Source of the DNA: an uncultured Dehalococcoidia bacterium
GTDB lineage: Bacteria > Chloroflexota > Dehalococcoidia > Lucifugimonadales > GCA-2712585
DNA: 64,000 bases
Direction of reading: 5' to 3'
NCBI GenBank assembly: GCA_951812825.1
Contig: OX638324.1
Coordinates: forward strand, 1,051,141-1,115,140
A model generated the notes under the pieces. The model was not told where the DNA came from and did no database searches. It was given only the letters and a program-made list of their open reading frames with translations. The position numbers and the translations under genes are program-made. Below, piece by piece: positions 1 to 61,490 of this stretch (the first letter of the stretch is position 1; the number at the start of each line of letters is the position of its first letter).

Positions 1-885
1 GTTGGGTCGGAGCACCCCTTGGCGGAGGCGGTGGTGCGTCGCGGCCGGGAAGAGGGCGTTGAATTCGCCGAGGTAACGGGGTTTGAGGCGCATCCGGGAC
101 TGGGAGTTGAGGCGCTGATGGAGGGCGAGAGGCTGCTGTTGGGCAACCAGGAGTTCCTTTCCACCAAGGGCCGTACGGTCAGCGAACTGGAGGCTCAGGC
201 AGCAGAACTGGCGTCGGAGGGAAAGACGGTAATGTACGTGGCCCGCGGGGACAGGGTGCTGGGGCTGCTAGCAGCATCGGACACGTTGAAGCCTGAGGCG
301 GAATCGGTGGTAGCGCACCTGAAGCAGCGGGGCCTGGAGGTAATTATACTGACCGGAGACAGGGAGGAGACGGCGCGGGCGGTTGCCGGATCCCTTGGCA
401 TCGAAGGAGTAACCGCGGGCGTACTGCCGGACCAGAAGGCGCTTCACGTGAAGGGGCTTCAGGAGAAGGGGAGGTGCGTGGCCATGGTGGGGGACGGAAT
501 CAACGATGCCCCGGCGCTGGCACAGGCAGACGTGAGCATTGCCATGGGAAGCGGGGCGGATACGGCGATGGAGACGTCGGGCGTGGTGCTGATGGGGAGC
601 GGCCTGGAAAGTCTGACGGCGGTGTTTGAACTCAGCAAGCGGACGCTGAGGGCAATTCGGCAGAACCTGTTCTGGGCCTTCTTCTACAATGCGGCGCTGG
701 TACCGGTGGCCATGGGGGTACTGTATCCTGTATTTCAACAGACGGGCGGAGTGCCCGAAGGATTGGAGTTCTTCTTTGGAGAGGTAGGGCTTCTCAACCC
801 GGTGCTGGCTGCACTGGCGATGGCCTTCAGTTCCGTCAGCGTGGTGAGCAATTCTCTGAGACTGAGAAGGTTGAGGTTATCCTGA
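1..885 (+). CDS. copA: Heavy-metal (Cu+-type) translocating P-type ATPase, C-terminal part (5' end lies outside the window)
   Basis: The ORF is open to the window edge. It has the P-type hinge motif GDGINDAPALAQADVSIAMGSGADTAMETSGVVLM, ILTGDREETA, and C-terminal TM helices. Confidence 0.85.
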   Translation, partial: VGSEHPLAEAVVRRGREEGVEFAEVTGFEAHPGLGVEALMEGERLLLGNQEFLSTKGRTVSELEAQAAELASEGKTVMYVARGDRVLGLLAASDTLKPEAESVVAHLKQRGLEVIILTGDREETARAVAGSLGIEGVTAGVLPDQKALHVKGLQEKGRCVAMVGDGINDAPALAQADVSIAMGSGADTAMETSGVVLMGSGLESLTAVFELSKRTLRAIRQNLFWAFFYNAALVPVAMGVLYPVFQQTGGVPEGLEFFFGEVGLLNPVLAALAMAFSSVSVVSNSLRLRRLRLS

Positions 886-886
886 C

Positions 887-1087
887 ATGATTGGAAAGCT
901 AAGGTCGATTTTCGGAAGGGGCGGGAACAGGGAAGAGGGAACGGCCGTGGACCCTGTCTGCAAGATGGTGGTTGAGAAGACGAACCCCTCTGGGGGTACG
1001 GCCGAATATCAGGAGGTGACGTACTACTTCTGCGCTCCGGGATGCCGAAAGACATTTCAGCAGAACCCGGAGAGGCATCTGGACTGA
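887..1087 (+). CDS. YHS/TRASH-type metal-binding domain protein
   Basis: DPVCKMVV...YYFCAPGCRKTFQQNP matches the YHS-domain pattern. It starts 2 nt after the copA stop. Confidence 0.7.
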   Translation: MIGKLRSIFGRGGNREEGTAVDPVCKMVVEKTNPSGGTAEYQEVTYYFCAPGCRKTFQQNPERHLD

Positions 1088-1119: not shown

Positions 1120-1148
1120 TTGAATGTTGGCGGTTGATTAGCTAGAAT
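1120..1148 (+). promoter_or_regulatory. Sigma70-type promoter candidate TTGAAT-17 nt-TAGAAT
   Basis: -35 TTGAAT at 1120-1125, exact 17-nt spacer, -10 TAGAAT at 1143-1148. It lies 35 nt upstream of the ATG at 1183. Confidence 0.45.
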
Positions 1149-1182
1149 AGGTATAGATTCTGAGCCGAGGGAGGCTGTGTCC

Positions 1183-1422
1183 ATGGCGGAGGTTGAAGCG
1201 CCCGAAATTGTAGTCTACACCCATCCGGACTGTGGATTTTCTACAGCAGTAAAGATTGACTATAACAACCGGGGCATTTCCTTCAGAGAGATAGATATCT
1301 CGGTGCACCCGGAGGCGATACCGGACTTGGAGAGGTTGACGGGTGGGGAACGGACGACGCCGGTGATTGTGCGGGGTGATGAGGTGACCATCGGCTTCAA
1401 CGGAATTGGTTGAAGTTTTTAA
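1183..1422 (+). CDS. Glutaredoxin-like protein (CGFS site) ending U-S-F-stop if TGA 1411-1413 is read as selenocysteine
   Basis: Thioredoxin-fold pattern VVYTHPDCGFS...TTPVIVRGDEVTIGFNG. SD GGGAGG lies 8 nt before the ATG at 1183. The ORF track ends at TGA 1411, but AGT TTT TAA follows in frame and a hairpin follows that. Confidence 0.6.
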
Positions 1423-1424
1423 GC

Positions 1425-1443
1425 GTCGGGCCGTTGGCTCGAC
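1425..1443 (+). promoter_or_regulatory. SECIS-like hairpin candidate downstream of TGA 1411
   Basis: GTCGGGC-CGTTG-GCTCGAC forms a 7-bp stem including one G-U pair. It starts 14 nt after the TGA and has a G/U-containing loop. Confidence 0.4.
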
Positions 1444-1546
1444 ACATCGGAAGTCACTTTTCGGCAGAGAAAAAGGCGGTTGGGTGGTTGAGGGAGTATT
1501 GACATCAAGCAGGGGCGCCCTTAGGATTTTGGTTGTAACTTTTCGC

Positions 1547-1624
1547 GGCCCGGTGGTGTAGTTGGCCTAACATACCGCCCTGTCAAGGCGGAGATCGGCG
1601 GTTCGAATCCGCTCCGGGTCGCCA
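1547..1624 (+). tRNA. tRNA-Asp (GTC)
   Basis: Cloverleaf folded by hand: acceptor GGCCCGG/CCGGGTC, anticodon stem CCGCC/GGCGG with loop CTGTCAA, T-loop TTCGAAT, discriminator G, encoded CCA. Confidence 0.9.
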
Positions 1625-5675: not shown

Positions 5676-5751
5676 TGGCTCCCGAGGCAGGACTCGAACC
5701 TGCGACCTAGCGGTTAACAGCCGCTTGCTCTACCAACTGAGCTACTCGGGA
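5676..5751 (-). tRNA. tRNA-Asn (GTT)
   Basis: The reverse complement folds as a 76-nt cloverleaf: acceptor TCCCGAG/CTCGGGA, anticodon loop CTGTTAA, T-loop TTCGAGT, encoded CCA. Confidence 0.9.
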
Positions 5752-5823: not shown

Positions 5824-6956
5824 TGTACTCGTTCAGTACATGTGAGACAGATTAGAAGGGACCAAGGATGGGTGGCACTGGAGAAGATACTGCAAAGGGG
5901 TTAGTCCGTCCAGGGAGTGATGAGGTCGGAAGGTGTCGTAGATTTGCTCCCATTTGAGCAGAGCCCGGTTGAGGGTAGAGACATCCAGTTCGCCATCATA
6001 GAGCTCGTAGAACTCTTCGGTATGAGTACGCTGGGCCCGCTCCACATGGCCGTTGAGCTTGGGAGAGCGCGGCGGCAGTATGAAGAGTTTGATATCGAAC
6101 TTCTGGCAAGCGGTCTCGAAGTCCGCCATGAACTCGGAGCCTCCATCCACCTGAACTGCCTTGATGGGGAAGGGAAACCGTCGCCGCATGGACTCAAGGA
6201 ACCGGGCCGCCAGTGTGGACGTGGCCCTTGTGTGCACCTCCAGCACGTCCCACCTGGAGACCATGTCCCGAGCGGTGAAGTGTTTGAGCACCATGCCAGG
6301 CAGAGGGCGCACGTCCAAAGTGTCCACCTGCACGATGTCCCCCGGTTCTATGACCTGATACTCCCTCGGCTTCCGTACCCCATAGGGACGCGGACGCGTG
6401 CGCCTACGGGCCGATATACCGTCACGGGGCGGCTCTTTCAACACCCCACGGGCCTTCAAGCGAGTCAGAATGCGGCCCACCATGGATGTGGACACCTCCC
6501 AGCCCTTATCCCTGAGCAACGGCGCCAGCTTGTCCTTCCCCCATCTAGGATACTCTTCCCTCAGCTTTAGCACTGCCCTAGCTAACTCAACAGTCCACGT
6601 AGGCCGCCTCACCCTCTTGGGTCGTCGACTCTTGTCTACTAAGCCCGCCGGCCCTTCCTCCCTGAGGGCTTTGTCCCACCGGTACAGGCTACAGCGTGAC
6701 AGTCCCAGTGCCTCTGCTGCTTCCGTTGCCGTCACTCCCCGTTGCCTCAATCTATTCCAGCCACTCACCCACCTCATCCGATCTTGCGCTTTCAACGTCA
6801 GCTGTGCTGGTGTCCTCTTCGAAAGCTGATAGAATGATTTGGGTAGTCCTACTACCCTCATGAAAGGGACCTCCTTCGGTCTATCTCACCCAAAGGATGG
6901 TCCCTTTCTATTTCCCTTACAACTCCATACGTCTCATATCTATCTGAACGAGATCA
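5824..6956 (-). mobile_element. IS481-family-like insertion sequence (copy 1)
   Basis: Imperfect terminal inverted repeats: TGTACTCGTTCAG...GTGAGAC at 5824 onward and GTCTCA...CTGAACGAGATCA ending at 6956. They enclose a single DDE transposase gene. No clear target-site duplication was seen. Confidence 0.7.
5833..6861 (-). CDS. IS481-like DDE (rve/integrase-core) transposase
   Basis: N-terminal HTH (ATEAAEALGLSRCSLYRW). Catalytic blocks VQVDTLDV, QVDGGSEF and PKLNGHVERAQRT. Confidence 0.85.
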   Translation of the reverse strand: MRVVGLPKSFYQLSKRTPAQLTLKAQDRMRWVSGWNRLRQRGVTATEAAEALGLSRCSLYRWDKALREEGPAGLVDKSRRPKRVRRPTWTVELARAVLKLREEYPRWGKDKLAPLLRDKGWEVSTSMVGRILTRLKARGVLKEPPRDGISARRRTRPRPYGVRKPREYQVIEPGDIVQVDTLDVRPLPGMVLKHFTARDMVSRWDVLEVHTRATSTLAARFLESMRRRFPFPIKAVQVDGGSEFMADFETACQKFDIKLFILPPRSPKLNGHVERAQRTHTEEFYELYDGELDVSTLNRALLKWEQIYDTFRPHHSLDGLTPLQYLLQCHPSLVPSNLSHMY

Positions 6957-6966
6957 GTGGGGGGGT

Positions 6967-7100
6967 CATTGCATGACGGCAGGTTTGGGGAGTTGGGCTT
7001 GGGGGGCATTGCGTGACGGCAGGTTTGGGGAGTTGGGCTTGGGGGAGGTGTTTGGTGTAGGCGCGTGGGTGACTGCGTGACGGCAGTCATTGCATGACGG
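6967..7100 (+). repeat. Tandem ~40-nt repeat (2 full units plus a rearranged third) abutting the IS end
   Basis: CATTGC(A/G)TGACGGCAGGTTTGGGGAGTTGGGCTTGGGGGG occurs at 6967-7006 and 7007-7045. A partial copy at 7071-7100 contains the palindromes GACTGC-GTGACG-GCAGTC and GTCAT-TGC-ATGAC. Confidence 0.8.
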
Positions 7101-7127
7101 GAAAGGATGTTGAGAACGGGGGTGGGG

Positions 7128-7347: not shown

Positions 7348-8397
7348 ATGATGCAGGTAGAGAGCGTTCGATTAACTTCGCTTGCCAATTGCGCGGGTTG
7401 AGCTTCCAAGTTCAGTCATGAAGACCTGGTGCAGGTCTTGGAGAAGCTACCCACGTTCTCGGACCCCAACCTGCTGGTGGGGTTCGAGTCGGGGGACGAC
7501 GCGGCGGTATACAAGCTGAATGACCGGCAGGCGCTGATATTCACGGTGGATTTTTTCCCTCCTGTGGTGGACGACCCGTTCTCCTTCGGGGCGGTGGCGG
7601 CGGCAAACTCCTTCAGCGACGTGTACGCAATGGGTGGAACGCCTATCTGCGCGCTGAACATTGTGGGGTTTCCGGTGGACCTGCCCAAGGAGATACTGTC
7701 GGAGATTATGCTCGGGGGATATACGAAGGCACAGGAGGCGGGTTGCCTGATAGCAGGAGGGCACACGGTGGACGACCAGGAGCCGAAATACGGGCTGGCG
7801 GTGGTGGGGCTGGTTGAGCCAGACCTGCAGGTCACGAACGCAGGGGCTCAAGCAGGGGACGTGCTTGTGCTGACGAAGCCCCTGGGGACGGGGATCATCA
7901 CCACGGCGGGGAAGCAGGGAGTGGTGGATGCTCAGGTGCTGGAGGAGGGAGTGAGGATTATGTCCACGCTCAACGCGTCGGCGTCGAAGGCCATGATGAA
8001 GGTAGGAGTGAACTCGGCGACGGACGTGACGGGGTTCGGGCTGGTGGGGCACCTGCGTGGGATGATGGCGGCGAGCGGGACAACGGCAAGGGTTGAGTTC
8101 TCGCGGGTGCCGGTGATTGACGGAGCGTGGGAACTGCTGGAGTCAGGAGTTGCGCCGGGGGGTACCCATCGAAATCTGGAGGGAGTGGGGAGCCAGGTTG
8201 CGTGGGATGGGGAGATTACTGGGAATCAGAGGTTGCTGCTGTGCGACGCTCAGACGTCGGGAGGGCTGCTGATTTCGGCGCCTGAGGGGTGTAGGGACGA
8301 CCTGCTGAGGGAGCTGGAAGCCCAGGGGGTTGAGGGATCAGTAGTTATTGGGGAGGTCCAAGAGGCGGGGGACTATCCGATAGAGGTAACGCCCTAA
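7348..8397 (+). CDS. selD: Selenide, water dikinase (selenophosphate synthetase), with in-frame TGA (7399-7401) read as Sec
   Basis: The ORF track starts at GTG 7429. The frame is open back to ATG 7348 except for one TGA, giving MMQVESVRLTSLANCAGUASKFSHEDLVQVL. This aligns with E. coli SelD [21 protein letters not shown], with U at the Cys17 position and K at the Lys20 position. The rest is typical SelD (DDAAVY, VDFF, GGHTVDD). Confidence 0.85.
7421..7439 (+). promoter_or_regulatory. SECIS-like hairpin candidate downstream of the selD TGA
   Basis: AAGACC-TGGTGCA-GGTCTT forms a 6-bp stem with a 7-nt loop containing GGU. It starts 20 nt after the TGA. Confidence 0.45.
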
Positions 8398-8597
8398 CCA
8401 CCGCCTACGGGCCGGACTATCTCCACGACGTCGCCCTCGGAGAGGGTAATTTCTTGGAAGCTCTCTTTTTCGATAACCTCACCGTTGTAGCCAACAGCGA
8501 TGAACTGGGTGGAGATGTCGAGGCTCTCCAGGTAGTTGACCAGACCCGTAGGGGCGGAAAGTTCCTTGGGCTTGCCGTTTATGGTCAGGCGAATCAT
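8394..8597 (-). CDS. thiS: Sulfur-carrier protein ThiS
   Basis: MIRLTINGK...VEIVRPVGGG has the C-terminal GG. Its ATG overlaps the thiE stop (ATGA). The 76-aa track ORF is trimmed to Met10. Confidence 0.8.
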   Translation of the reverse strand: MIRLTINGKPKELSAPTGLVNYLESLDISTQFIAVGYNGEVIEKESFQEITLSEGDVVEIVRPVGGG

Positions 8598-9253
8598 GCC
8601 GCCGCTCCTTGTGTTTTTTTCCATGCACTGCGGATATCGTGCTTGAGCTTACACGCCGTCTCCCCGGGTTGGAGCGACGAAAGAATGGCGCTAATGACGG
8701 CTACTCCCGACGCGCCTGCGCGGACAACGTCTGCGGCGTTTCGGGCGTTGATGCCGCCGATGGCGAGATAGGGGATGGTGAGTATAGGCTCCAGGCTCTC
8801 AATGAAGGACAGGCCTTGGGGAGACCGGCCCGGATGGGAGCGGGTGGAGAAGACGGAGCCGGCGATGAGGTAGTCGGCTCCCTGGCGTTGGGCCTCCAGT
8901 GCGCCCTCGTTGTCGTGGACGGAGCGGCCTATGAGCATATTGTCGCCGACCAGGGAGCGGGCATCGGATGGGCTTAGGGCTTCTTCGCCGAGATGAACAC
9001 CGTCGGCGTTAGCAAGGAGGGCAACGTCTATCCTCTCGTTGATGATGAGCAGGGCTTTATCGTCTATGGCGCGTCTGATGTTCATGGCCAAGTCGAGCAA
9101 GAGGCGTCCCGGGAGGTCTTTTTCGCGAAGCTGCACGATGTCTACTCCGCCTTCGACGGCCAGGGCAATCTTTTGGGGGAGGGATGAGTCCTGGCATAGT
9201 CGACGGTCCGTGACTATGCAGAGGGCCGGACAGGGAAAGGGCAGCCGAGACAT
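8594..9253 (-). CDS. thiE: Thiamine-phosphate synthase
   Basis: LCIVTDRRLC...VDIVQLREKD...IGRSVH...DYLIAGSVFST...AIGGI pattern. It abuts the thiG stop. Confidence 0.85.
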   Translation of the reverse strand: MSRLPFPCPALCIVTDRRLCQDSSLPQKIALAVEGGVDIVQLREKDLPGRLLLDLAMNIRRAIDDKALLIINERIDVALLANADGVHLGEEALSPSDARSLVGDNMLIGRSVHDNEGALEAQRQGADYLIAGSVFSTRSHPGRSPQGLSFIESLEPILTIPYLAIGGINARNAADVVRAGASGVAVISAILSSLQPGETACKLKHDIRSAWKKTQGAAA

Positions 9254-10045
9254 TTAATCAGGAGGCGCGACGGGTTGGGGAACGTCCTGAGTGGGGCTGC
9301 TGGCGGAGGCGTAGAGTCTCCGGGAGATACGACCTGCCAGGAAGGCGTTTCGTCCAGCCTCGACACCCTGGCGGAAGGCGGTTGCCATGAGGACGGGGTC
9401 GTGGGCCTGGGCGATGGCGGTGTTGACGAGGACGGCATCGGCGCCCATCTCGAGGGCCTGGGAGGCTTCGGAGGGTACGCCGAGGCCGGCATCTACGACG
9501 ACTGGAACGCGGGCTTGCTCAATGATGATGCGTATCTCTTCGACGGTGTGGATGCCCTGGCCGGAGCCGATGGCGGAGCCGAGGGGCATGACGGTTGCGC
9601 AGCCGACTTCCTGGAGCTGATGGGCCAGGACCGGGTCGGCATGGATGTAGGGAAGGACTACGAAACCTTCACTCACAAGCTGTTCAGCGGCCTTTAGGGT
9701 TTGGGCCGGGTCCGGGAAGAGGTACTTGGGGTCCGGAATGACCTCCAGCTTGACCCAGTTGGAGCCAGTGACGGAGCGTCCCAGCTTGGCGATGAAGAGG
9801 GCCTCCTCCATGGTTTGGCATCCGGCGGTGTTGGGAAGAACGTCATAGACGTTCCAGTCGAGGTAGTCGAGGATGGTCTTTTCGTTGGGGTTGTCCAGGT
9901 CCAGGCGGCGGATGGCGACGGTAATCATCCCGGTGCCGGAGGCCTCCACGGCGTGGACCATGTCGTCCATAGTGCGATACTTGCCGGTGCCGAGAATCAG
10001 CCTGGACGGGAAAGTCTTGCCAGCGATGGTCAGTTGGTCTTCCAT
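9254..10045 (-). CDS. thiG: Thiazole synthase
   Basis: [23 protein letters not shown]...[12 protein letters not shown]. The start is trimmed to Met46 of the track ORF because the upstream 45 codons cover the riboswitch. Confidence 0.85.
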
Positions 10046-10107
10046 GATGCGCCTCAGAAACCCGCAAGATAAGAGCAAATGGTGAAGGGCTGAGGTTGAG
10101 TGAACCA

Positions 10108-10200
10108 TGATTCCTACGCCGGCATTATCCGGTTCAGGTTCAAACGGTCGCCCTCCGAGAGGGCCTCTCAGCCTGTCCAACCAGGCTCCCGTGGGGTGTA
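10108..10200 (-). promoter_or_regulatory. TPP (THI-box) riboswitch
   Basis: The minus strand reads CACGGGAGCCTGG...GGCTGAGAGGCC...GACCGTTTGAACCTGAACCGGATAATGCCGGCGTAGGAATC, which contains the conserved CTGAGA and ACCTGA.C.GGATAATGCCGGCGTAGGAA blocks. Downstream, CCTCAG can pair with the thiG SD region CTGAGG. Confidence 0.85.
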
Positions 10201-10213
10201 TTTCAATGGAGAT

Positions 10214-16708: not shown

Positions 16709-17670
16709 CTTATTCTCTCACAACATATAGTACAGGTTGTGTAGAATGATGGATGAGAAGAATAGCAATACGAACGATCATAGAGACATGGAAGGCAAAG
16801 GGAGAGAATCTATCGGCGACAGCTCGGGAACTGGGTATAGACCGGAGGACGGTAAAAAGGTGGGTGGACCGGGGACGACAACCCTGGGGATACGTTCGGT
16901 GGAAAGGGGTAGAGCGCCGGTCCACGGCGCCCAAGCGTCCCAGGCGGGCACTGGTGGGCGAAGCTGCCCTTTGGGTACGCAGATTAAGGGAAAGGACGGG
17001 CTTCTGCCGGGAGAAGCTGGCGGTCATAGCCCAAAGGGAGGGGGTAAAAGCATCGGCGTCTACCATTCACAGGTACCTGCTTCGGAAGGGTTTGATCCGG
17101 CCCAGCACCAAGAGACGCCGTCCCCGATACCAGAACGGTATGGTCATGAGGCCCAGTAACTGTCCAGGATTGGGCTATCTACAGATGGACGTGAAGTATG
17201 TTACGCCGGAGCTTTCCGGGTTGCCCTACACCTGCTACCTGTATGCGGCCCTGGACATCTCCACCCGCTACAAGGTGGGCCTCATTCTCCCCAAAGTGGA
17301 TGAGTCAAGTGCTCTCCTGGCTCTGTACCACGCTACCGGGAACCTGCCTTTCCCTGTGTGCTACGTGCAGACGGACAATGGCTTGGAGTTTCAGAGGCGG
17401 TTTCATGCCAAGTGCCAGGAGATCGGTGTGGAACACTTCTACATCCACAAGAGTTCTCCCAATGAGAACGCAGTGGTGGAGCGCAGCTTCCGCACCGACG
17501 AGGAGGAGTTCTTCTTCTGGCTGGAAAATCCTCCCCGTGACTATGGCCAACTGAACTCCTGGTACCAGAGCTTCCTCTACACCTACAATAACATCCGCCC
17601 TCACATGGGCATCAATATGCTTACTCCCAAGGAGGCTATCTCCCTGTACCTTAAGTCTTGAGAGAATAAG
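16709..17670 (+). mobile_element. IS481-family-like insertion sequence (copy 2) with 6-bp target-site duplication
   Basis: Inverted repeats of about 28 bp: CTTATTCTCTCA..AC.TA..GTACAGG at 16709 onward and its complement ending at 17670. They are flanked by direct GCGGCG (16703-16708 and 17671-17676). Confidence 0.8.
16753..17661 (+). CDS. IS481-like DDE (rve) transposase
   Basis: HTH ATARELGIDRRTVKRW. Catalytic blocks LQMDVKYV, VQTDNGLEF and PNENAVVERSFRT. The stop codon lies inside the right IR. Confidence 0.85.
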   Translation: MRRIAIRTIIETWKAKGENLSATARELGIDRRTVKRWVDRGRQPWGYVRWKGVERRSTAPKRPRRALVGEAALWVRRLRERTGFCREKLAVIAQREGVKASASTIHRYLLRKGLIRPSTKRRRPRYQNGMVMRPSNCPGLGYLQMDVKYVTPELSGLPYTCYLYAALDISTRYKVGLILPKVDESSALLALYHATGNLPFPVCYVQTDNGLEFQRRFHAKCQEIGVEHFYIHKSSPNENAVVERSFRTDEEEFFFWLENPPRDYGQLNSWYQSFLYTYNNIRPHMGINMLTPKEAISLYLKS

Positions 17671-36901: not shown

Positions 36902-38119
36902 CTAGGTGGTGTAGGCGCTGTTGAAGGTGACGTACTCTTCGCTGAGGTTGCATCCCCAAGCGGTGGCGCTGTGCTCGCCGAGGTTGAGGTTGACCCTGAT
37001 GTCCACCTGACCCTGGGACATGAGGGCTATGACGGAGTCTCGGTGGAAGGGGGCGGGGAGGCCGTTCTCCATGATGAGGGCACCGTTGATGTGGAGGGCC
37101 AGCTTGCTTTCCTCCACGTCGGCCTCGCTGCGGCCAAGGGCGACGGTGATGCGGCCCCAGTTGGGGTCGTTGCCGTGGACGGCGGTCTTGACGAGGCTGG
37201 AGCCGCTGATGATGCGGGCGGCGCTGCGAGCCTGCCGGAGGGTTCTTGCGCCTTCCACGGTGACTTCGATGAGCTTTGTAGCGCCTTCACCCTCGCGGGC
37301 GATGCGCTTGGCAAGGTCGATGCAGACTTCTGCGAGGGCGTGGGAGAAGAGTTCGGCGCCCTCGGTTCCAGGCCGGATGGGGCCGGCGCCGGCGGCGCCG
37401 TTGGCCATGAGGAGGACGGTATCGTTGGTGCTGGTATCGCCGTCGATGGTCATCATGTTGAAGGAATCGTCGGCGGCGTCCTTGAGCATCTCCTTCAGAA
37501 GATCGGAGGAGATTTCCGCGTCGGTGGTAATGAAGGAGAGCATGGTTGCCATGTCTGGGTGGATCATGCCCGCGCCCTTGGCGATTCCGCCGATGGTGAT
37601 GGTCTTGCCGTTCAAGGGGAAGGAGACGCCAATTTCCTTGGGCCTGGGGTCGGTGGTGAGGATGGCGCGGGCCATGCGGTGGCCGCCGTCGGTGGCAAGC
37701 TGAATGCGGTCGATGCCACTTTCGATGAGGGACATGGGAAGCTCGACGCCGACGACGCCGGTGGAGCAGATCAGGACGTCCTCCGGCCTGATGCCGAGAA
37801 TATCCGCGGTCTTGCCGGTCATGCGCTTGGCGTCGCCGTAGCCGGGATCGCCGACGCAGGCGTTGGCGATGCCGCTGTTTACAACAACAGCGTGGGCCTT
37901 GCCATCGGCGACGTGCTCCTCGGTGAGGATGACGGAGGGGGACTTGAGCTTGTTCTGGGTGAATACACCGGCAGCGGTGGTGGTCCTTCGGGAGTAGAGG
38001 ATGGCGAGGTCGAGCTTGTCTTCAGCGTAGGTCTTGAGGCCGGCAAAGGTGGCGCCGGCCACGTAGCCTTGGGGCGAGGTGACGGTGCCGTCTTCGATTA
38101 TGGTGATGCCACCGGGCAT
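36902..38119 (-). CDS. argJ: Ornithine acetyltransferase / N-acetylglutamate synthase (canonical start; frame stays open 49 codons further to ATG 38266)
   Basis: Autoprocessing site PDMATMLSFITTDA. GAGGAGG SD lies 8 nt before the ATG at 38119. The upstream in-frame codons encode a CxxC...CxxC peptide (see findings). Confidence 0.88.
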   Translation of the reverse strand: MPGGITIIEDGTVTSPQGYVAGATFAGLKTYAEDKLDLAILYSRRTTTAAGVFTQNKLKSPSVILTEEHVADGKAHAVVVNSGIANACVGDPGYGDAKRMTGKTADILGIRPEDVLICSTGVVGVELPMSLIESGIDRIQLATDGGHRMARAILTTDPRPKEIGVSFPLNGKTITIGGIAKGAGMIHPDMATMLSFITTDAEISSDLLKEMLKDAADDSFNMMTIDGDTSTNDTVLLMANGAAGAGPIRPGTEGAELFSHALAEVCIDLAKRIAREGEGATKLIEVTVEGARTLRQARSAARIISGSSLVKTAVHGNDPNWGRITVALGRSEADVEESKLALHINGALIMENGLPAPFHRDSVIALMSQGQVDIRVNLNLGEHSATAWGCNLSEEYVTFNSAYTT

Positions 38120-60887: not shown

Positions 60888-61490
60888 CTAGGGGTTGATG
60901 GTGTAGTCGACGGTTACCTCGAGGCCCTGGAGGAGGTAGGGGTTGGAGAAGACCAGCTGGTATGCGCCGTTGATATCCGCCTGGAATTCTACGGTGTTGC
61001 TGGGCGTCTGGGGCTCATCGAGCAACTGATCTCCAATGGGATTGAGGACGGTGAAGATGACATCACTAGCCGCCGAGCCAGCACCCTCATCACCTGCGAA
61101 CCTTCCTCCGGTGGTGATTCCTCCGGAACTACGTCCCAACGAGGAGTAGGTTACGCTCACAGTGTCGCTGGCAGCGAGGTTGAGTTCGAAGACCTCAAAA
61201 CCTCGAGAAATAACGAATATTGTCTCCGTGCCCGACCCGGTTGCAGGGGCAGCGTCGGCAGGCGCCGGAGGCTGGGTGGCAGCGGGGGCGCTGGGGGTCG
61301 CGGCGGTGGCTGCCGGAGGGGCGGTTCCACCGTTATCGCCACTATCGCCATTATCACCGCCACCGCAAGCGGCCAGGAGAGAGATAGCTAGAAGGGCGAG
61401 CGACACTGCGGCGATGGGGGCTAATCTTCGCAGGGACGCTGCGATGACTCTACAGCTGGCGAACACAGGGGAATGGAATTTGGGTTGCAT
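60888..61490 (-). CDS. Hypothetical lipoprotein
   Basis: Lipobox LLAACGGGDNG, an Ala/Pro/Thr-rich linker, then a beta-rich ~120-aa domain. No family recognised. Confidence 0.5.
   Translation of the reverse strand: MQPKFHSPVFASCRVIAASLRRLAPIAAVSLALLAISLLAACGGGDNGDSGDNGGTAPPAATAATPSAPAATQPPAPADAAPATGSGTETIFVISRGFEVFELNLAASDTVSVTYSSLGRSSGGITTGGRFAGDEGAGSAASDVIFTVLNPIGDQLLDEPQTPSNTVEFQADINGAYQLVFSNPYLLQGLEVTVDYTINP

Follow-up and report, generated by a model that had tools for sequence, protein, structure and literature searches.

Near the beginning of a 64-kb stretch of DNA from an uncultured Dehalococcoidia bacterium (contig OX638324.1; the whole stretch is referred to here as the window, and all coordinates are window positions) lies a small glutaredoxin-like gene, grx, whose annotated reading frame closes at a TGA codon that is very probably read as selenocysteine (Sec). 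The layout in this species comprises rpoC-rpoB on the minus strand, copA, the gene of a YHS-domain protein, grx, tRNA-Asp and an amino-acid ABC transporter. We describe the gene and the family to which it belongs, the comparative evidence that its TGA is translated, the hairpin that follows it, and the neighboring genes that bear on a possible role for its product in the handling of copper.

Results

The open reading frame (ORF) listed at 1177..1413 (+) has 78 aa when counted from GTG 1177, which is how a first-pass annotation, made from the letters of the sequence, had described it. The frame is present, but ATG 1183 is the likelier start, since GGAGG (ribosome-binding site, 1170..1174, +; invariant across 10 aligned relatives) lies 8 nt before it, the ATG, GTG or TTG starts of relatives fall in the same alignment column, and the public calls for this exact protein, which end at the TGA, are 76 aa long. 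With UGA 1411 read as Sec, the coding sequence of this putative selenoprotein occupies 1183..1422 (+) and would yield 79 aa. Its 3' end reads GFNGIG-TGA(1411-1413)-AGT(Ser)-TTT(Phe)-TAA(1420-1422), and the only Cys in the protein, Cys17 (codon 1231..1233, +), stands in the motif Y-T-H-P-D-C-G-F-S; the reading frame, the C-G-F-S site and the TGA-Ser-Phe-TAA ending are all in the sequence as the first-pass annotation had read them. The promoter-like element that it had assigned to the gene, TTGAAT-17-TAGAAT, was likewise recovered by a consensus scan at 1120..1148 (+; 9/12 matches), and an alignment with 10 relatives displays both of its hexamers as conserved blocks amid a diverged spacer.

The first-pass annotation had also pointed to a family of 'Uxx-star' glutaredoxin-like proteins. 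The family exists and the protein falls within it: the profile NF041211, "UXX-star (seleno)protein family 2" (curated cut-off 100 bits), gives 114.4 bits for the ORF that ends at the TGA and 123.9 bits when the tail is added as C-S-F (Cys for Sec), the match then spanning model positions 1-71 of 71. The cut-off of the broader NF041212, "Uxx-star family glutaredoxin-like (seleno)protein", is passed as well, relatives from every subclade score above the NF041211 cut-off, and a Dehalococcoidia protein of 80% identity already bears the family 2 name at NCBI. By these profile matches the gene is a member of a curated and published family, which makes the present observation a re-discovery and not a discovery, and annotation pipelines based on NCBIfam would name its product. 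A recent review counts UXX-star family 2 among the selenoprotein families, with the motif GxGU, and credits it to Haft & Tolstoy 2025, mSystems (PMC13188914).

Among more general profiles, PF00462 matches at 39 bits, the NrdH model TIGR02194 reaches 33.9 bits against a cut-off of 85.75, the Grx3 and mycoredoxin models also remain far under their cut-offs, and no monothiol glutaredoxin model is found among the profile matches at E <= 0.01. Modeled with AlphaFold2, the 76-aa core (pLDDT 80) has the order b1-a1-b2-a2-b3-b4 and is without the C-terminal helix; a Foldseek search places NrdH-redoxins and small glutaredoxins nearest to it among solved folds, at TM 0.74-0.77, with the NrdH entries 4hs1 and 1h75 at 0.74-0.76. 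In residue alignments to solved structures (2mzc and 1h75 included), Cys17 falls on the first Cys of CPYC/CVQC and Ser20 on the second, T-T-P-V corresponds to the cis-Pro loop, and I-G-F matches W-S-G-F in NrdH. The position of Cys17 is nearly invariant among homologues, and the motif shared across the family reads Y-T-[HR]-P-[DE]-C-x-[YF]-S, the residue after the Cys being variously G, A, S, T, N, P or E.

Probable translation through the UGA codon

The 44 homologues found in the databases, as protein records, all end at ...G-x-G, and for this reason the DNA of relatives was examined. A scan of one genome per species yielded 80 loci, all from Dehalococcoidia, SAR202 or other Chloroflexota, or 81 with the window. 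A TGA occupies the same column at 78 of the 80 (78 of 81 sequences when the window is counted); at one locus (L079) the contig ends right after it. The codon that follows is drawn from 11 different codons (for Ser, Ala, Asp, Glu, Asn or Thr) among the 78, the second codon is for Phe in 76 of them (TTC 68, TTT 8), and a stop stands at the third in 75 (TAG 52, TGA 15, TAA 8), while in the other three an Asp codon precedes the stop. Base composition would place a stop at exactly this position in about 3% of cases. The synonymous variation at the conserved Phe, together with the free exchange of three stop codons, argues that the tail is translated.

The two remaining loci (L057, L069) end in ...G-I-G-C-N-F-S-stop, and a protein search seeded with this Cys-type sequence returned 39 aligned clusters, all of which end in G-I-G-C-N-[FY]-x. 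In the alignment the Cys of this clade falls on the TGA column, which gives the TGA/Cys pairing by which a selenoprotein family is defined. The first-pass annotation had allowed for the prospect that homologues might uniformly end at ...GFNGIG with ordinary stops; what the DNA of relatives holds instead is TGA-x-F-stop at 78 of the 80 loci and a separate clade with Cys in place of the TGA. A genome-wide reassignment of TGA was considered and rejected, since TGA serves as an ordinary stop in copA and in the YHS gene. Taken together, these comparisons point to UGA 1411 being read as Sec (Sec77; 1411..1413, +), with the true end of the protein two residues later, and this forms part of an overall explanation that we hold to be highly probable. 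Literature searches for experimental work on Sec in SAR202 or Dehalococcoidia, or on glutaredoxin-like proteins with a C-terminal Sec, found nothing relevant.

The active site differs between the two types in a manner that may reveal what the Sec is for. The Sec-type loci encode C-x-[YF]-S in 78 of 78 cases, whereas the Cys-type proteins have an invariant C-G-Y-C together with the C-terminal Cys (39/39). The simplest reading of these alignments is that the role of the second Cys in the active site is filled by the C-terminal Sec, such that Cys17 and Sec77 would form a pair; we regard the split between Sec/CxxS and Cys/CxxC as suggestive, and not statistical, evidence for cooperation of the two residues.

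A hairpin behind the stop codon

Wholly behind the predicted true stop (TAA 1420), in the 3' untranslated region (UTR), lies a hairpin of the kind expected for a Sec insertion sequence (SECIS), at 1425..1443 (+). Its arms, GUCGGGCC-GUU-GGCUCGAC, form a perfect stem of 8 bp around a GUU loop (1433-1435), with a folding energy of -11.9 kcal/mol. As the first-pass annotation had noted, its first base comes 14 nt after the T of the TGA, so that 11 nt separate codon and stem, and the loop begins 19 nt after the UGA. The 11-nt gap between UGA and stem is presumably the same as in the minimal SECIS of E. coli fdhF. In energy alone the hairpin is unremarkable (z = -1.5; 19 of 200 shuffles fold as well), and as such it is the comparative data that carry the argument for a SECIS.

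For this comparison, the 48 nt from the TGA onward were aligned with MAFFT, with no structural guidance, for 64 distinct sequences. RNAalifold returned a single 7-bp helix with a 3-nt loop, on which 88% of cells are paired, versus 36-59% after one arm has been shifted 1-3 columns. Compensatory (double) changes occur in 7 of the 7 pairs and amount to 98 cells, against 35 ± 4 in shuffles, and the covariation score was reached by none of 500 shuffles. The first two bases of the loop, G and U, are each more than 90% conserved in this alignment, and the pair is held 16-22 nt from the TGA across relatives.

The published model of the bacterial SECIS (bSECIS) describes a loop of 3-9 nt, an upper stem of 4-16 bp and a G within the first two bases of the loop, with G or U as the usual next base (PMC13188914, Fig. 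2 legend), with a distance from UGA to loop of 16-37 nt and a minimum free energy of -7.5 kcal/mol or below (PMC13188914). The hairpin of the window lies within all four constraints (3 nt, 8 bp, GUU, 19 nt, -11.9 kcal/mol). With stems taken as uninterrupted, so do 65 of the 78 relatives, as opposed to 50 of 729 (6.9%) ordinary TGA stops, these controls being taken from the ends of long ORFs on the same DNA. No such hairpin is found at either Cys-type locus (n=2), and it is retained in a clade linked to recA that has no tRNA downstream; the hairpin thus tracks the TGA and not the neighboring gene. Rfam, at its gathering thresholds, has no match at the hairpin. An intrinsic terminator was considered and rejected, as there is no T-run and a terminator scan was silent at this site. 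The covariation and the absence from Cys-type loci support the hairpin as a predicted SECIS that fits the published model.

Probable selenocysteine decoding in the host

The first-pass annotation had taken selD, elsewhere in the window, as a sign that the host decodes Sec, and this holds more strongly than was stated, as selD (selenide, water dikinase; 7348..8397, +) appears to be a selenoprotein gene itself. The listed selD ORF starts at GTG 7429, 27 codons too late, and matches TIGR00476 over positions 23-307 with 356.9 bits; when it is extended through an in-frame TGA (7399-7401), the match covers positions 1-307 and rises by 25 bits to 381.5. The N-terminus then reads M-M-Q-V-E-S-V-R-L-T-S-L-A-N-C-A-G-TGA-A-S-K-F, or ...LANCAG-U-ASKF in the protein, and in this Gly-rich segment the TGA stands at the position of the catalytic Cys or Sec of SelD. 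A hairpin of the same shape as that of grx follows at 7421..7439 (+), with a stem of 8 bp, a GUG loop 27 nt after the UGA and an energy of -9.2 kcal/mol. A SelD that contains Sec would imply that the host has a working Sec system.

A crude scan for further selenoproteins, which sought a TGA followed by a hairpin whose loop starts with G-T and preceded by an open frame, gave five weak candidates in the window, at 37408, 49847 and 57658 (+) and at 61159 and 60491 (-). They have short frames or stems rich in G-U, the candidate at 61159 meets a stop again after one codon, and all five are probably due to chance.

The surroundings of selD include an IS481-like transposase ORF at 5833-6861 (-), which sits between tRNA-Asn (5676-5751) and selD; it and a second IS481-family-like ORF at 16753-17661 (+) score 195.5 and 162.7 bits, respectively, under the cut-off of 224. 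The interval between this transposase gene and selD holds, at 6961-7104 (+), a tandem pair of 40-nt direct repeats that are 95% identical, along with a degenerate third copy. Further along, a thiamine pyrophosphate riboswitch (RF00059, 65 bits; 10093-10202, -) stands upstream of a 308-aa ORF (9254-10180) and thiE (8594-9253).

Genomic neighborhood

The first-pass annotation had placed grx directly after a copper ATPase and a YHS metal-binding protein, and both are indeed there. The window holds the 3' part of copA (19..885, +), which encodes the last 288 aa of a P1B ATPase of the Cu(I) type and ends in an ordinary TGA at 883-885. In its translation the motifs N(x)6YN(x)4P and P(x)6M(x)2SS are legible, which we take to be the transmembrane signature motifs of the P1B-1 group. 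On other contigs of the same species copA is full length (840 aa) with HMA, E1-E2_ATPase and Hydrolase domains, and it scores 572.8 bits with the copper-translocating model TIGR01511 (cut-off 397), a model that all of the neighboring ATPases tested pass. The gene for the YHS-domain protein (66 aa; 887..1087, +; PF04945, 34 bits against a cut-off of 30.3), which also ends in an ordinary TGA, begins 1 nt after the copA stop, and grx follows 95 nt further on.

Across the 81 loci, copA is found upstream of grx, on the same strand and within 2.5 kb, in 22, comprising 20 of the 78 Sec-type loci and both of the Cys-type. The 20 come from several subclades, with protein identities as low as about 49%. 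The YHS gene stands between copA and grx at 17 of the 81, all of them Sec-type (17/78), and is absent from all 7 Cys-type contexts, which is a small sample. Of the 7 Cys-type contexts examined, 6 have a Cu-type ATPase directly upstream. Five of these came from protein look-up, and there the ATPase gene ends 11-46 nt ahead of grx, with outer flanks that differ in every case (genes for MFS/ABC-2/FGGY kinase, DUF8575/GHMP kinase, an amidohydrolase and an alcohol dehydrogenase among them). Genes kept together amid changing surroundings are a usual sign of a functional link, and since this pair persists while its surroundings change, a link between copA and grx is supported. As such, the first-pass suggestion of a role in metal or redox hand-off is reasonably supported by gene order at the level of the family: the pairing of copA with grx recurs, but most Sec-type loci are without copA.

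Downstream, tRNA-Asp(GTC) (1547..1624, +) is preceded by a promoter-like TTGACA-17-TAGGAT (1499..1527, +; 10/12 matches) and is the commonest neighbor on that side, lying on the same strand in 52 of the 81 loci. In one clade, which we label 'YTRPDC' (L024, L035, L041 and others), it begins only 30-37 nt from the true stop of grx; as this leaves no room for a promoter, the mRNA and tRNA-Asp are probably co-transcribed there, with the SECIS hairpin near the 3' end of the message.

In 16 of the 81 loci, which form one clade (L026-L028, L040, L043, L044, L052, L056, L058, L064, L070-L072, L074, L077 and L080), recA lies 120-300 nt downstream and the tails read G-[FY]-K-G-G-x-U-[DE]-F. Here recX (at most of the loci), plsY and a gene for a PHP-domain protein recur nearby, and copA and tRNA-Asp are absent; the proteins still pass NF041211 and the loci keep the SECIS hairpin.

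Discussion

The explanation that best accounts for these observations, and which we consider highly probable on the comparative evidence, is that grx is a UXX-star family 2 gene in which Sec is inserted at UGA 1411 and serves a Cys-Sec chemistry; the identity of the partner is a separate matter and is graded separately below. Under this explanation, transcription would start from the gene's own conserved promoter (1120-1148) and translation from ATG 1183. UGA 1411 would not act as a stop, as the hairpin offers the G-U of its apical loop 19 nt downstream, where bacterial SelB expects a SECIS; Sec would be inserted from Sec-tRNA(Sec), followed by Ser and Phe, with termination at TAA 1420. The product would be a minimal NrdH/glutaredoxin fold of 79 aa whose Gly-rich tail, G-x-G-U-x-F, bears the Sec. 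It is reasonable to postulate that Sec77 pairs with Cys17 of the C-x-x-S site and stands in for the missing second Cys of a CxxC, and that the two residues may constitute either a selenenylsulfide redox couple or a two-ligand site for Cu(I). A tentative proposal drawn from gene order, to which we give somewhat less than even weight, has as the physiological partner CopA, the Cu(I)-exporting P1B ATPase whose gene lies just upstream, here with that of the YHS protein. The small protein could then hand Cu(I) to CopA, or could keep the metal-binding cysteines of CopA reduced.

A number of observations weigh against parts of this explanation. Both the insertion of Sec at UGA 1411 and any activity of the family rest on sequence comparison, and neither selA nor selB (among the large ORFs) nor tRNA-Sec was found within the 64-kb window. 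The proximity of Cys17 and Sec77 would follow from the fold topology of the core model, and the correlation of Sec/CxxS and Cys/CxxC probably represents one evolutionary transition, since the Cys-type proteins form a single clade. A part for His14 as a metal ligand is unlikely, as a whole clade has Arg in its place. With respect to copper, 58 of the 78 Sec-type loci are without copA within 2.5 kb, the commonest Cys-type cluster (P0078) adjoins rpoB and is without copA, and the most stable neighbors are housekeeping genes (tRNA-Asp, 52/81; recA, often with recX, 16/81; rpoB and rpoC nearby). Furthermore, the promoter that grx appears to possess, conserved among relatives, means that co-regulation with copA need not be invoked.

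The observations on gene order and on the promoter are at the same time what would be expected if the protein were a general housekeeping redoxin, an NrdH-like disulfide or selenenylsulfide oxidoreductase, recycled by thioredoxin reductase and delivering electrons to ribonucleotide reductase or other acceptors, with the adjacency to copA being inherited synteny of no functional significance. NrdH-redoxins are its nearest folds (4hs1, 1h75; TM 0.74-0.76) and are also among its best sequence matches in the PDB, and the gene remains beside rpoB where copA is absent. However, inherited synteny does not predict the recurrence of copA-grx gaps of 11-46 nt amid differing flanks in the Cys-type contexts, the protein falls well short of the NrdH model (33.9 vs 85.75 bits) and lacks CVQC and WSGFRP, and no ribonucleotide reductase gene was seen adjoining any of the loci. 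We consider a housekeeping role to be a live alternative that carries roughly one chance in three.

A more specific form of the copper proposal would make the protein a dedicated partner of CopA, that is, a selenium-based copper chaperone or a thiol/selenol reductase in which Sec replaces the second Cys, its message in part of the lineage being a co-transcript with tRNA-Asp from which RNase P would leave the SECIS as the 3' end. In this full form the proposal is rather unlikely; if true, it would describe the first Sec-dependent protein for the handling of copper.

It is very improbable, in our estimation, that TGA 1411 is a plain stop, with the protein ending at ...GFNGIG and the hairpin serving as an element of transcript end or stability. 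The public gene calls do all end at the TGA, at 76 aa, the folding energy of the window hairpin is unexceptional, and in one clade the hairpin lies about 10 nt before tRNA-Asp, where it might mark a site of RNA processing. Against this, a plain stop would not account for a Phe at the second codon that is kept through synonymous changes, for a stop at the third in 75 of 78 loci, for a whole clade that aligns Cys with the TGA, or for the 9.5 bits that the tail adds to the score of the curated model. Nor does the hairpin behave in such a manner: it has no T-run and went unreported by the terminator scan, the recA-linked clade keeps it and the Cys-type loci lack it, so that it follows the TGA and not the tRNA, and its loop G-U is conserved at 16-22 nt from the TGA. 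Least credible of all is the idea that the protein belongs to the class II ('CGFS') monothiol glutaredoxins, which bind Fe-S clusters with the help of a thiol cofactor. The window protein does happen to have the tetrapeptide C-G-F-S, as the first-pass annotation read it, but this is no trait of the family, whose motif is C-x-[YF]-S with a variable Gly (G, A, S, T, N, P, E). No monothiol glutaredoxin model matched at E <= 0.01, and the protein is some 30 residues shorter than class II glutaredoxins and without the C-terminal helix.

With Sec at UGA 1411 as the preferred reading, some practical consequences may be considered. Public calls that end at the TGA would omit three residues, the reactive Sec among them, and proteomic or structural work that relies on such calls would overlook the active tail. 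The strict split of Sec/CxxS from Cys/CxxC, the way grx is found beside a Cu(I) ATPase again and again in differing genomic surroundings, and the compact SECIS in the 3' UTR narrow the hypotheses to a Cys-Sec pair that would act on, or together with, a copper exporter, and the family offers a clean natural example of a predicted bacterial SECIS that lies entirely outside the coding sequence. What may go beyond the accessible literature is the quantitative covariation of the SECIS, its position behind the stop with a fixed geometry, the split between Sec/CxxS and Cys/CxxC, and the statistics of neighboring genes, including the linkage to tRNA-Asp.

The closest known system is the NF041211 family itself, with which the window protein shares the glutaredoxin-like fold, the G-x-G-U motif and a Sec three residues from the C-terminus, and from which no defining difference sets it apart. 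For the proposed hand-off to CopA there is a parallel in human glutaredoxin-1, which binds Cu(I) through two exposed Cys and acts as its chaperone to ATP7B, a P1B ATPase (PMC7057996). A protein of glutaredoxin fold that passes Cu(I) to the HMA domains of a copper ATPase parallels the gene pairing seen here, by analogy only; unlike the window protein, the human one is a CxxC dithiol glutaredoxin without Sec (PMC7057996).

The hairpin resembles the SECIS of the E. coli fdhF type and the bSECIS model in that a stem-loop comes right after the UGA, with G-U opening a small apical loop. A bacterial SECIS normally lies within the coding sequence, however, whereas the element of the window is wholly in the 3' UTR and is compact, with a stem of 7-8 bp and a loop of 3 nt. 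With the NrdH-redoxins and small bacterial glutaredoxins (PF00462; 1h75, 4hs1, 2khp) the protein has in common the b-a-b-a-b-b core, the first Cys, the T-T-P-V of the cis-Pro loop and a G-F that follows the final strand; it differs from them in the Ser at the place of the second active-site Cys, the lack of a C-terminal helix and the tail that would bear Sec, and in place of the NrdH hallmarks CVQC and WSGFRP it has C-G-F-S and T-I-G-F-N-G.

Last, the C-terminal redox center of animal thioredoxin reductase, Gly-Cys-Sec-Gly, is thought to shuttle between a buried thiol center and substrates. The likeness to the protein described here lies in a Sec carried on a short, flexible, Gly-flanked C-terminal tail and in a SECIS behind the stop codon. 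The animal enzyme is a flavoprotein with adjacent Cys and Sec and with a eukaryotic SECIS and decoding apparatus, whereas the window protein is unrelated to it in fold and has its Cys and predicted Sec far apart in sequence.

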